A stretch of DNA of 36,936 bases, taken from an uncultured Candidatus Saccharibacteria bacterium (lineage in GTDB: Bacteria; Patescibacteriota; Doudnabacteria; UBA920). Positions 26,708 through 28,172 of this stretch are shown here, piece by piece. Each line of letters opens with the position of its first letter. Position 1 is the first letter of the stretch. The notes under the pieces were generated by a model. The model made no database searches, was not told where the DNA came from, and worked only from the letters and a program-made list of their open reading frames with translations. The position numbers were made by a program, and so were the translations under genes. The stretch spans positions 3,357-40,292 of the forward strand of contig CAZGAF010000005.1 in assembly GCA_964523855.1 (NCBI GenBank), written 5' to 3'.

Positions 26708-26760
26708 TGGCGGGGCTTCCACCTTCGCTAAAGCTACGGCAGATAAACTTCTCACTCCTT
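26708..26760 (-). pseudogene. Degenerate tRNA-Asp-derived 3' fragment, copy B
   Basis: The minus strand reads ...GTGAGAAGTTTATCTGCC...GGAAGCCCCGCCA. It shares 'GAGAAGTTTATC' and 'GGAAGCCCCGCCA' with copy A but lacks the GGTCCC acceptor segment. Confidence 0.5.
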
Positions 26761-26812
26761 CGCAATCATCACCCATTGAAAAACAGTTCACCTTGTGTGG
26801 ACTGTTTTTCAA

Positions 26813-26864
26813 TGGCGGGACCGGCGGGGCTTCCGCCAGAGGCGGATAAACTTCTCGCCCTGCC
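26813..26864 (-). pseudogene. tRNA-Asp 3'-half copy A with inserted hairpin
   Basis: 19 nt (26813-26831) are identical to the 3' end of tRNA-Asp (26917-26935, AGCCCCGCCGGTCCCGCCA). Next comes the hairpin TCCGCC-aga-GGCGGA (26832-26846), then 'taaacttctcgc' resembling the variable/anticodon-stem segment. There is no 5' half. Confidence 0.65.
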
Positions 26865-26916
26865 TTAGTACAGCATACAAAAAAGCCGATTGTCGCAAGG
26901 ACATCCAGCTTTTTTG

Positions 26917-26993
26917 TGGCGGGACCGGCGGGGCTCGAACCCGTAACCTCTCGCGTGACAGGCGAGTGCTCTAACCAATTGAGCTACGGTCCC
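26917..26993 (-). tRNA. tRNA-Asp (anticodon GUC), CCA encoded
   Basis: The minus strand reads GGGACCG TA GCTC AATTGGTTA GAGC A CTCGC CTGTCAC GCGAG AGGTT ACGGG TTCGAGC CCCGC CGGTCCC G CCA. The cloverleaf folds by hand, with one A:C at the first T-stem pair. Confidence 0.9.
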
Positions 26994-27159
26994 AGAATTA
27001 TATAATAGCTTGTTTTATGACATTTTTGAACTTTACACAACCAACCTCGACGCCTCGGTCGGGGCTCCGACTTTACGTCGGAGTTGAACTAAAGTCCCAA
27101 TAAATATATTTTTTCAATAATTTTGGCTGTGCCATGTACCCGAGTCTGCGAATGGTTCA

Positions 27160-27216
27160 TGGTAGCGGAGGGTGGAATTGCACCACCGATCCGCCTGAGG
27201 CGGACTTATGAGTCCC
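27160..27216 (-). pseudogene. tRNA-Met 3'-half copy with inserted hairpin
   Basis: 30 nt (27160-27189) are identical to the 3' end of the adjacent tRNA-Met (T arm, acceptor and CCA). Next comes the hairpin TCCGCC-tga-GGCGGA (27190-27204) in place of 'CCCAAGG', then CTTATGAGTCCC, which is the anticodon loop plus stem. It starts 2 nt after the full tRNA. Confidence 0.7.
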
Positions 27217-27218
27217 TT

Positions 27219-27295
27219 TGGTAGCGGAGGGTGGAATTGCACCACCGACCTTGGGCTTATGAGTCCCACGCTCTAACTAACTGAGCTACTCCGCC
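27219..27295 (-). tRNA. tRNA with CAU anticodon (elongator Met or Ile2), CCA encoded, non-canonical T-loop
   Basis: GGCGGAG TA GCTC AGTTAGTTA GAGC G TGGGA CTCATAA GCCCA AGGTC GGTGG TGCAATT CCACC CTCCGCT A CCA. It has a G1:U72 wobble, an A31/G39 mismatch and the T-loop UGCAAUU (G at position 55). Confidence 0.8.
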
Positions 27296-27551
27296 GCGCT
27301 AAGCGCGGCATCAGTCACGCTAAGCGTGACCGCCACGCGCTATTCCGAACAAAATAAATCCCGCGGACAGCGGGAAAATCTGTCACGATTTTATATTATA
27401 CTTGTCGCCTACGCAACCACGGTACAACCATTAAAAAATGGGGCCCCCGAATTTTTGCTTTGAAAAATTTGGGGCAAGGAGCAATATCCTGAACGATGTG
27501 TAGTTCCAAATCTGAATTTGGAACGAAACTAAGTGATGGATGATTGACCCG

Positions 27552-27607
27552 TGGTTGCGGGACCCGGACTCGAACCGGGAATCCGCCTGGGCGGATTATG
27601 ATTCCGC
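27552..27607 (-). pseudogene. tRNA-fMet 3'-half copy with inserted hairpin
   Basis: 30 nt (27552-27581) are identical to 27904-27933 (T arm, acceptor and CCA). Next come TCCGCC-tg-GGCGGA (27582-27595) in place of 'CCTGAAGG' and then TTATGAT (anticodon-loop-like). It abuts the GIY-YIG stop codon. GCGGA-AUCAUAA-UCCGC can alternatively fold as an anticodon-arm mimic. Confidence 0.7.
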
Positions 27608-27853
27608 TTAAGATTTTATCACACTTTTTAAAAATGCGCGTCCTTTACCCGTTTTAAAAAACTTTTCTCGCTTTAACGCATCGGTTCGCGTTTCAAACTT
27701 TTCAAAATATACCAACTCCCAAGGCCCCTTACCCTTTGTATAGTATGGTTACCAACTCTCACCTTTATGTTGATCAATTCTAAAGGACAAATAACGAGTT
27801 GACCCTTTATACAAAATCCCTTCGGGATTTTTTAAAATATATACGTAATACAT
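27608..27853 (-). pseudogene. GIY-YIG nuclease-domain ORF (about 81 codons) interrupted by one in-frame TAA
   Basis: It is invisible in the ORF track because both pieces are under 60 aa. Manual translation gives MYYVYILKNPEGILYKGSTRYLSFRIDQHKGESW*PYYTKGKGPWELVYFEKFETRTDALKREKFFKTGKGRAFLKSVIKS*. This shows the GIY (YVYIL), YIG (LYKGST), R and E (ALKREK) pattern of small URI-domain proteins. The internal TAA is at 27749-27751. Confidence 0.75.
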
Positions 27854-27903
27854 AGGGCAACCAAGAGAAAACTCCAATTATAATTTATATTGAAGGGCTC
27901 GCT

Positions 27904-27979
27904 TGGTTGCGGGACCCGGACTCGAACCGGGAACCTTCAGGTTATGAGCCTGACGAGCTGCCAATTGCTCTATCCCGCG
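27904..27979 (-). tRNA. Initiator tRNA-fMet (CAU), CCA encoded
   Basis: CGCGGGA TA GAGC AATTGGCA GCTC G TCAGG CTCATAA CCTGA AGGTT CCCGG TTCGAGT CCGGG TCCCGCA A CCA. The C1/A72 mismatch and the A11:U24 pair are bacterial initiator hallmarks. Only two of the three usual G:C pairs are present at the bottom of the anticodon stem. Confidence 0.85.
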
Positions 27980-28100: not shown

Positions 28101-28172
28101 CTAGCTGCGCTTCTTTTTGGAAGCGGTTTTTTTCTTAGCTACTTTCTTCTTAGCTTTTTTCTTGACAGCCAT
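28101..28172 (-). CDS. Candidate 23-aa lysine-rich small ORF
   Basis: MAVKKKAKKKVAKKKTASKKKRS*. The SD AAGGGAGAG ends 4 nt before the ATG, a 9-bp hairpin (28186-28220) lies just upstream, and the terminator hairpin starts 23 nt after the stop. The case rests on compositional and positional evidence only. Confidence 0.3.
   Translation of the reverse strand: MAVKKKAKKKVAKKKTASKKKRS

Follow-up and report, generated by a model that had tools for sequence, protein, structure and literature searches.

Half-tRNAs carrying GC hairpins as probable scars of small GIY-YIG nuclease cassettes in bacterial tRNA genes

The locus and its question

Why should three different transfer RNA (tRNA) genes of one chromosome each be followed by a partial copy of its own 3' part, and why should all three copies carry nearly the same GC hairpin? 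The question is raised by a stretch of 36,936 nucleotides (nt) from an uncultured Candidatus Saccharibacteria bacterium (GTDB lineage Doudnabacteria, UBA920; assembly GCA_964523855.1, contig CAZGAF010000005.1, positions 3,357 to 40,292), which was analysed as a whole and is called the window here. It is a chromosome segment of the candidate-phyla bacterial type, with ATP synthase genes, a PolyA_pol/CCA-enzyme gene and a GT4 glycosyltransferase gene. Next to its initiator tRNA gene (tRNA-fMet) lies an open reading frame (ORF) for a small GIY-YIG protein, and comparison with loci from relatives' genomes (labelled with L-numbers below) suggests an answer, namely that the half-tRNAs are scars of free-standing GIY-YIG nuclease cassettes living in tRNA genes. 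This is the best explanation of the whole and a fairly probable one; the identity of the cassette and the scar origin of the half-tRNAs, taken by themselves, are highly likely. The features concerned are listed below.

27904..27979, minus strand: tRNA-fMet (CAU, C1xA72), functional initiator and parent (ARAGORN; Rfam tRNA, 63.6 bits)
27854..27903, minus strand: spacer s48, native downstream flank of fMet (allele series and alignment)
27608..27853, minus strand: GIY-YIG (UPF0213/SLX1-like) ORF, 81 codons (Pfam PF01541, E=6.8e-15; tblastn 27853-27611)
27552..27601, minus strand: fMet pseudo-tRNA 3' copy, made of TCATAA (27596-27601), hairpin and positions 47-76 with CCA
27582..27595: hairpin TCCGCC-ca-GGCGGA in the fMet copy
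27393..27551, minus strand: X190, a native flank allele, here 3' of the fMet pseudo copy
27219..27295, minus strand: tRNA-Met (CAU), functional elongator (ARAGORN, Rfam)
27160..27216, minus strand: Met pseudo-tRNA 3' copy, made of positions 29-39, hairpin and positions 47-77; without ORF
27190..27204: hairpin TCCGCC-tca-GGCGGA in the Met copy
26917..26993, minus strand: tRNA-Asp (GUC), functional (ARAGORN, Rfam)
26813..26858, minus strand: Asp pseudo-tRNA 3' copy 1, made of positions 39-47, hairpin and positions 58-76 with CCA
26832..26846: hairpin TCCGCC-tct-GGCGGA in Asp copy 1
about 26708..26755, minus strand: Asp pseudo copy 2, decayed

The pattern TCCGCC-N{2,4}-GGCGGA has three matches in the window (26832-26846, 27190-27204 and 27582-27595) and none across 100 dinucleotide-preserving shuffles of it. 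Each match sits inside a partial 3' copy of the adjacent tRNA, which stands upstream in the tRNA sense, and 30 (fMet), 30 (Met) and 19 (Asp) of the 3'-terminal nt are identical to the parent. A preliminary description of the region, made from its letters, had reported the three hairpins and these identities, and both are confirmed. A map in tRNA numbering also agrees with its placement of the hairpins, over the 3' anticodon-stem strand and variable loop in Met and fMet and over the 5' T-stem strand and T loop in Asp. The extents that it gave were right in their 3' identity and wrong in length, the Met and fMet copies being longer and keeping an anticodon loop 5' of the hairpin. Its three copies stand, and a fourth, the decayed Asp copy, had been missed.

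In the fMet copy, TCATAA is the remnant of the anticodon loop and the hairpin occupies approximately positions 39-46; the same module is found in L169 and L001. The Met copy begins 2 nt past its parent's CCA, retains the anticodon loop GGGACTCATAAG at 27205-27216, and has positions 40-46 replaced by the hairpin, in the same place as in a GIY-associated Met pseudo copy in L126. Its 3' flank is of the native type, as found after Met in L116. Asp copy 1 retains GCGAGA-GTT (26847-26858), while its hairpin replaces the 5' T-stem strand and the T loop up to position 57, with a 'tct' loop, as T-loop hairpins of other genomes typically have. On the 3' side of this copy stands the native Asp terminator (26776-26812), as in L156 and L159, and the terminator that follows the working tRNA-Asp (26878-26916) is non-native. 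In Asp copy 2, the hairpin arms are mutated to TCTGCC and GGTGGA, the loop is expanded, nine nt of the acceptor strand are deleted and no stable fold is predicted. The Asp gene bears two successive scars, and both the Met and the Asp cassettes are now without an ORF.

A cassette shared by many bacterial phyla

A protein-profile search of species-representative genomes retrieved 80 loci, of which 79 are non-redundant at species level and are counted here. At least 413 relatives are present among 600 candidate stretches from such genomes. Hosts in the candidate phyla include Gracilibacteria, Peregrinibacteria, Dojkabacteria, Doudnabacteria, Uhrbacteria and Saccharibacteria. The Bacteroidota contribute cultured Flavobacterium, Chryseobacterium, Flagellimonas, Algoriphagus and Algibacter among others, and further hosts are Melioribacter, Desulfobacterota, Planctomycetota, Acidobacteriota, Verrucomicrobiota and Gammaproteobacteria. 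The carriers in culture include Melioribacter sp. Ez-97, Flagellimonas iocasae KCTC 62196, Chryseobacterium koreense CCUG 49689, Algoriphagus hitonicola DSM 19315 and Algibacter pectinivorans DSM 25730.

One design recurs across these hosts. A same-strand tRNA lies within 200 nt of the ORF at 68 of the 79 loci, representing 15 isotypes, and an opposite-strand tRNA within that distance at none (0/79). A partial copy of the neighbouring tRNA stands across the ORF at 56/79 loci. Two layouts occur, tRNA-ORF-3' copy (layout A, 40/79) and 5' copy-ORF-tRNA (layout B, 27/79), and the ORF either starts 5-60 nt past the tRNA 3' end or stops 0-25 nt before the tRNA 5' end. In the cassette, an ORF some 80 codons long thus runs in the same direction as a complete tRNA 0-200 nt away, and two stretches of tRNA bracket it.

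For instance, L001 has the order fMet tRNA, ORF, CTCATAA, TCAGCC-aa-GGCTGA, T arm, acceptor strand and CCA; its hairpin is in the same place as the fMet hairpin of the window and differs by a compensatory double change. In L008, tRNA-Ile is followed by the ORF, by ATCGGCC-ta-GGCCGAT and then by Ile sequence from the D loop to CCA, with compensatory stem changes between copy and parent. In L002, fMet pseudo copies flank the ORF on both sides and have the anticodon arm replaced by TCCGCC-taa-GGCGGA. Tandem arrays of pseudo-tRNAs occur in L031, L043 and L049.

Several of these loci show further peculiarities. In Melioribacter isolates (L031, 1410-1905), at least five tandem 99-nt pseudo-tRNA-Cys units with CCCGCC-tta-GGCGGG stand upstream of tRNA-Cys and the ORF. 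L053 is a contig of 666 nt at 753x coverage, which suggests that repeats were collapsed in assembly. A hairpin-bearing pseudo-tRNA-Arg in L020 (2234-2314) reaches 34 bits with Rfam's tRNA model, whose gathering score is 29, so such scars can be annotated as tRNA genes.

These comparisons bear on what the preliminary description had proposed. Its idea of one common mechanism, a mobile cassette tied to the GIY-YIG ORF, gains support from the recurrence of the arrangement in 79 species-level genomes and 15 isotypes. The search of related genomes that it had suggested recovers the order tRNA, GIY-YIG, partial tRNA and hairpin, as in the syntenic L001 with its compensatory variant, and the tabulation of tRNAs and co-occurring ORFs gives the counts above. 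The Met and Asp copies had been taken for cargo-less scars, and relatives do have GIY-YIG ORFs at Met (L126) and at Asp (L033). That only the fMet copy has cargo is also correct, but this ORF is interrupted by an in-frame TAA. The objection that the assembly might be chimeric is not upheld, as an independent assembly (L169) has the identical layout.

The ORF and its protein family

The TAA, at 27749-27751 on the minus strand, stands where relatives encode Phe. Internal stops are found in only 3/90 ORF copies, the window's included, and 85/90 copies are intact. The closest homologue found, on the syntenic contig L001, is 70% identical and intact. Because of the in-frame TAA, the window ORF is a probable pseudogene; the local nuclease is probably dead, although the three hairpins are still perfect.

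The family alignment has invariant Y, G, R, H and E columns. The proteins have 76-84 amino acids and consist of the catalytic domain only, lacking the separate DNA-binding domain of the I-TevI/Seg design. Profile matches in the PDB are led by 1zg2 (8.2e-13) and 1ywl (2.6e-12), followed by SLX1 entries (6.6e-6 to 3e-3). On this evidence the protein is assigned to UPF0213, with the structure-specific SLX1 nucleases as its nearest characterised relatives. The DNA substrates of SLX1 are branched and stem-loop structures. Outside any intron or intein, the ORF has an intact tRNA on one side and a partial copy or flank on the other; Rfam matched no ribozyme at the loci scanned. Searches of phage and plasmid collections returned one weak phage match, no plasmid match and two IMG/VR loci.

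The hairpin: position, pairing and lineage

GC-rich perfect hairpins are present in 69/79 loci, and the exact TCCGCC-N2-4-GGCGGA in 35/79. Across 82 loci, the density of perfect GC hairpins, with TCCGCC dominant, is 5.2/kb within 200 nt of the ORF vs 0.31/kb elsewhere, a 17-fold difference. Most of the hairpins distant from an ORF sit in pseudo-tRNAs as well, in ORF-less arrays beside the same tRNA. Within the redundant copy, hairpins occupy the D loop, the anticodon arm or the T loop, and they are never found in the working tRNA. The boundaries, in tRNA numbering, are the following.

26/44: hairpin in place of the whole anticodon arm; outer stem pairs often remain, and the hairpin prolongs the helix
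24/35: replaced up to the first anticodon base
21/22: clean insertion in the D loop
35/36: clean insertion in the anticodon
37/56: anticodon loop to T loop replaced
56/57: clean insertion in GGTTC^GAATCC, usually of a double unit, TGCGCC-aaa-GGCGCA plus TCCGCC-tct-GGCGGA

Their common effect is to turn a loop of 7-8 nt into a tight hairpin with a loop of 2-3 nt, often in register with the old stem. Among 311 GCC-N2-3-GGC cores, 125 have all three outer pairs complementary, compared with 29.7 in permutations, which argues for selection on the pairing. Variants likewise stay palindromic (TCAGCC/GGCTGA, TGCGCC/GGCGCA, CCCGCC/GGCGGG and TTCGCC/GGCGAA). In L034, the copy has U8C and an acceptor-stem mismatch, yet its hairpin is perfect; judged by such changes, the copies are true pseudogenes. 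In imperfect hairpins, G.U-compatible mismatches number 31 vs 27 for A.C, a strand-asymmetry comparison made for an RNA role.

The type of hairpin tracks the nuclease clade across isotypes and phyla. An Asp clade has TCCCGAG-ta, a Cys clade CCCGCC-tta and an Arg clade CCTGCCTGC-cg, and the TCCGCC type is shared by four nuclease clades, ten isotypes and at least five phyla. The hairpin would therefore travel with the cassette, amid flanking pseudo-tRNA sequence of local origin; in other words, it appears to belong to the cassette lineage and not to the local tRNA. Hairpins are absent at L111, whose ORF has no partial copy, and from the tRNA halves made by a different, ORF-less element (L156, L178).

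Alleles at the fMet locus

With an intergenic motif of 18 nt as the query, about 25 relatives with the fMet-Met-Asp cluster were found. In cassette-free relatives, s48 is directly joined to this motif (AAAATCGTGACAGATTTT), and the interval between fMet and the motif exists in several states.

fMet-s48-motif, the empty allele: six loci
fMet-s48-ORF-motif, without copy and without hairpin: L111
fMet-s48-ORF-CTCATAA-hairpin-(47-76)-X190-motif: window, L169
as the window allele, with flank Y200 instead of X190: L001
fMet-X190-motif: L146
fMet-Y200-motif: L178
layout B allele in the fMet-to-motif interval: L033, L174

One module of ORF, CTCATAA, hairpin and positions 47-76 thus precedes two unrelated flanks, X190 and Y200, each of which abuts an intact tRNA elsewhere (X190 directly 3' of intact fMet in L146). 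This comparison indicates that the tRNA sequence itself is the right-hand arm of the module. The L146 and L178 alleles are as expected for recipients or deletion products, and L146 would be the predicted leftover of annealing. Close relatives are polymorphic for presence and absence at all three genes, fMet being empty, ORF-only or filled, and Met and Asp being with or without an ORF. In L126 and L147, the copy corresponds to one Met tRNA variant (variant 1) and the working gene to another (variant 2). Because the copies keep native downstream flanks and show this split between variants, and because compensatory changes separate the L008 copy from its parent, they are best read as displaced parts of the resident gene. 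A link between the cassette and a resistant tRNA allele was considered and is rejected for fMet, whose sequence is the same in carriers and non-carriers.

The flanks themselves have some features of their own. About 25 metagenomic relatives share, between fMet and Met, the AAAATCGTGACAGATTTT motif followed by a terminator-like hairpin (27359-27392, minus strand), an unusually strong conservation for a spacer. X190 (window, L146, L169) comprises some 160-190 conserved nt directly 3' of the tRNA CCA. The sequence at its 3' terminus, CCGTGGTTGCG, is complementary to CGCAACCACGG, in which the 3' end of the tRNA is joined to the first bases of X190; there is also an internal hairpin, CCCCAAATTT...AAATTTGGGG. 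Neither X190 nor Y200 has a match in Rfam, and X190 may represent either a structured RNA or a small element with inverted repeats. Another element, Y, follows CCA directly (window 27100-27159; L001 2700-2860; L178; L116) and has an inverted repeat of 12-13 nt, TAAACCAGTCGC...GCGACTGGTTTA; the tRNA before it is fMet or Met, depending on the genome, and this element is also unmatched in Rfam.

How the cassette may move

In the proposed cycle, the nuclease would break the DNA of a tRNA gene, and repair of the break from a carrier would copy the cassette into that gene, with tRNA sequence on both sides as the homology. Arms made of tRNA would allow transfer into the same tRNA gene of any genome, irrespective of its flanks, and such homing by means of portable homology arms seems reasonably probable. 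The host would be left with one working tRNA, and the displaced resident part would remain as a partial copy with its native flank. Where flanks are unlike, one junction would be illegitimate and would fall in a loop. Repeated events, or recombination driven by the nuclease, could then build arrays such as the five 99-nt units of L031. A break between the two direct tRNA repeats would delete the ORF or the whole cassette by annealing.

The SLX1-like nuclease may act at tRNA loops, as the phage T4 endonuclease SegB does at the T loop, and capped loops would keep the redundant copy uncut. This role of the hairpin as a protective loop cap is the likeliest of those considered, but a tentative proposal. 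Among the functions suggested in the preliminary description, an immune target variant is tentatively favoured over a processing signal; the hairpin is not simply the end of a mobile cassette, since it is usually internal to the pseudo-tRNA.

Several observations weigh against homing with capped scars. The putative nuclease has 80 amino acids and no separate DNA-binding domain. The working tRNA beside the cassette has the same sequence as cassette-free alleles, so a tRNA-directed nuclease should cut its own host's gene; tolerance has to be assumed, as for SegB. An immunity patch need be neither a palindrome nor one sequence held across phyla. Some loops are intact, such as the T arm in the fMet and Met copies of the window, and L010 has a perfect repeat of 61 nt with the hairpin at its edge only. 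Finally, phage and plasmid collections contain almost no members of the family.

Alternative explanations

The hairpin might instead be the nuclease's own partner: the small, dimeric SLX1-like protein would bind it as a palindromic site in DNA, or as a hairpin formed by DNA or by RNA. Such binding could let the nuclease regulate its own gene through an operator, or could nick the site and so initiate copying or amplification; neither case involves a protective cap. This is rather unlikely. In its favour, hairpin type tracks nuclease clade, TCCGCC is better conserved than the protein (40-58% identity), two-fold symmetry is kept perfect by compensatory changes, the closest characterised relatives are structure-specific nucleases, and tandem arrays of hairpins fit amplification induced by nicks. 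However, an operator could sit anywhere in untranslated regions, yet the hairpins are at canonical loop and arm positions of tRNA. Their place relative to the ORF varies: layout B has them upstream, layout A has them downstream, and in arrays the distance can reach 400 nt. A cut at a hairpin between direct tRNA repeats should also delete the cassette. A further and rather doubtful possibility, given about one chance in four, is a two-part mobile system. Here the nuclease would break hairpin loops of tRNA genes and the palindrome would be a non-coding homing insert copied in by break repair; conserved tRNA blocks would supply the homology, and only where a tRNA copy is redundant would the palindrome survive. 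As part of a transcript, the hairpin could be a processing or stability signal in a pseudo-tRNA co-transcribed with the tRNA and ORF, its closed loops averting treatment as a tRNA and misfolding with the real one, and protecting the nuclease mRNA's ends or defining them. No separate promoter is evident for the ORFs, which lie close to tRNA ends, in-register replacement at 26/44 keeps a tRNA-like arm length while removing the anticodon, pairing is selected, and the predicted fold of the window copies, a hairpin together with a T arm, has -24 kcal/mol and z of -2.0 to -2.7. Nevertheless, we regard a function in RNA as improbable: many copies have no acceptor strand, which makes recognition by RNase P or RNase Z unlikely, conservation of sequence beyond what stability needs is left without explanation, and hairpins persist in arrays that have no ORF.

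Two further accounts would make the nuclease incidental or remove it altogether. Autonomous palindromic micro-elements, like the mobile palindromic GC clusters known from yeast mitochondria (PMC4478555), would explain the clean, deletion-free insertions at 21/22, 35/36 and 56/57, the fixed double-hairpin units and the longer nested GC palindromes. That the ORF co-occurs by accident is nonetheless very improbable in view of the 17-fold enrichment beside it, the absence of hairpins from the 36.9-kb window outside pseudo-tRNAs and from the pseudo halves of the ORF-less inverted-repeat element, and the correspondence between hairpin type and nuclease clade. Partial 3' copies downstream of a tRNA are also the classic footprint of integrated elements (PMC9897764), and attachment-site (att) scars of integrase islands that target tRNA 3' ends would leave them. 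Such scars, like repeat-induced misassembly, can practically be dismissed. No recombinase gene is present in or near the units, where the GIY-YIG gene is the only ORF between the repeats; the islands would be just 2-350 nt long (2-100 nt for the Met and Asp units); and 5' copies stand upstream in 27/79 loci, with hairpins inside the copies. The same layout in independent assemblies from other samples (L001, L169, L002-L007) speaks against misassembly.

Other candidates were tried and rejected. A group I intron in the anticodon loop is inconsistent with uninterrupted parent tRNAs (63-67 bits), and no intron model matched. Split or permuted tRNA genes are inconsistent with the intact copy beside each half, and the copies lack essential arms and have disabling changes (U8C in L034). 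The hairpin arms are not terminal inverted repeats of the ORF unit, as a lone TCCGCC or GGCGGA stands at no ORF's other end. A junction of 3' to 5' acceptor stems, as in permuted or tandem tRNAs, fits the window Met (GGCGGAG) by coincidence only, and the Cys, Arg and Asp hairpin types do not fit it. The view of the hairpin as a pure breaker of homology against deletion is weakened by perfect repeats of 61 nt in L010 and of 52-54 nt in L020, L050 and L085. Lastly, the fMet copy can be folded as a mini-tRNA with a GCGG/CCGC stem, but neither L169 nor L001 conserves this fold.

Relation to known systems

The closest precedent, by analogy, is SegB of phages T4 and T6, which is likewise a GIY-YIG gene among tRNA genes. 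SegB has about 220 amino acids including a DNA-binding part, unlike the cassette protein of about 80, which is a catalytic domain only and belongs to the UPF0213/SLX1 branch. SegB is a phage gene, whereas the cassette family is chromosomal in many phyla and nearly absent from phage and plasmid sets. SegB is a homing endonuclease of the T4 tRNA cluster. It recognises 27 bp, of which the 11 conserved ones correspond to the TpsiC motif of tRNA genes (PMC2330249). Its cuts fall within tRNA genes, at RAWTSGAAC, and lead to tandem amplification of tRNA plus segB, with survival of the donor left unexplained there (PMC13096335). SegB spreads together with neighbouring tRNA genes, and the two papers, so far as consulted, mention neither pseudo-tRNA arms nor hairpin modules. 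The T-loop hairpins of the cassette split exactly the RAWTSGAAC/TpsiC box, and the amplification described can be compared with the tandem pseudo-tRNA arrays of L031, L043 and L049.

Other systems share single traits. Islands of tyrosine recombinases that target tRNA genes (PMC9897764) also restore the tRNA, leave a partial copy at the far end and produce tandem scars in successive events. Unlike them, the cassette has no recombinase, its cargo is one 80-codon ORF or nothing, 5' and 3' copies both occur, and its breakpoints are in D, anticodon or T loops. Mitochondrial GC clusters and double-hairpin elements are, according to PMC4478555 (and through it Yin 1981 and Paquin 2000), short, perfect, GC-rich palindromes that spread, merge into double units, are constrained and tend to lie near tRNA genes. 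Clean insertions at 21/22, 35/36 and 56/57 and double units recall them. However, the cassette hairpins are bacterial, are not dispersed genome-wide, and are confined to pseudo-tRNA loops and arms beside one nuclease family; they are also much shorter (14-20 nt) and specific in type to nuclease clades. Among the free-standing homing endonuclease ORFs of fungal mitochondria, the Allomyces atp6 element of Paquin et al. 1994 reportedly consists of a free-standing endonuclease ORF with a duplicate 3' end of the target gene, and the displaced original 3' part is said to persist downstream as a pseudogene, with GC-rich double-hairpin elements nearby. If so, the two are alike in that the ORF arrives with a replacement piece and the displaced part stays; the atp6 type differs in having protein-coding targets in an organelle and hairpins that are not at defined structural positions inside the displaced copy.

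The nuclease domain of UPF0213/YhbQ and SLX1 (PDB 1zg2, 1ywl, 4xlg, 6seh) is of the same sequence family as the cassette ORF, with profile E-values from 8e-13 to 5e-5. SLX1 requires SLX4 and a RING domain, both absent from the cassette, and the sources searched hold no record of a role of UPF0213 at tRNA genes or in mobility. An Rfam scan of the window region, the relatives and 17 further loci matched only tRNAs, plus Flavo-1 elsewhere, and left the copies and hairpins unmatched. The statement of the preliminary description that it knew of no described element with this signature agrees with these results and with the literature, since a full-text search, whose reach excluded most subscription journals, found no description of the cassette. 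Compared with SegB-type cassettes and tRNA islands, the minimal nuclease, the built-in tRNA arms and the hairpin-capped pseudo-tRNAs appear to be new, and the hairpin module may be new in kind.

Other features of the tRNA region

The Met region of L156, L178, L109 and L033 has a different tRNA-invading insert, of about 190 nt, with 14-bp terminal inverted repeats (CCCCGCACCAAAAT / ATTTTGGTGCGGGG). It brings a complete replacement tRNA-Met, splits the resident tRNA-Met in the anticodon loop, and has neither an ORF nor a GC hairpin. In L109, an ORF with LAGLIDADG-type motifs (by eye) lies 3' of the displaced Met 3' half. Several families of endonuclease seem to share the fMet-Met-Asp cluster as a hot spot. 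Near Met or Asp in L142, L146, L154, L159, L169 and L033, an element of about 70 nt, CCCAAAAATTAGGAGCGC-hairpin-GAGCACGGATTTTTGGGAAAGAGG, occurs sometimes twice per locus; it is absent from the window and has no Rfam match.

In the window itself, the anticodon stem of the elongator tRNA-Met (27219-27295) is closed by an A31.G39 mismatch, and the T loop of this tRNA, TGCAATT, is unusual; both features are conserved in relatives. Just 5' of this tRNA and overlapping its 5' end, two adjacent hairpins (27293-27330, minus strand), GTCACG-cttag-CGTGAC and GCCGCG-cttag-CGCGGC, share the same CTTAG loop. Between the PolyA_pol gene and fMet lies a tiny lysine-rich ORF, MAVKKKAKKKVAKKKTASKKKRS (28101-28172, minus strand), which is conserved in the syntenic relative (L001 2023-2091).

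Significance

An odd local repeat thus becomes a recognisable and very common genome feature, with at least 413 loci in many phyla. It explains one source of pseudo-tRNA calls and of repeats collapsed in assemblies. If the hairpin were the nucleic-acid partner of the nuclease, the two would form a compact and possibly retargetable system. If the two-part system were true, it would be a new class of mobile element, with the shape of tRNA genes rather than one sequence as its target, and this would explain the spread of one nuclease clade over 15 tRNA isotypes. For the uncharacterised UPF0213 family, the finding suggests a likely role for part of its members as selfish nucleases resident in tRNA genes. 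Cultured carriers exist, in which the way a minimal GIY-YIG domain finds tRNA genes and the function of the hairpin are open to study.

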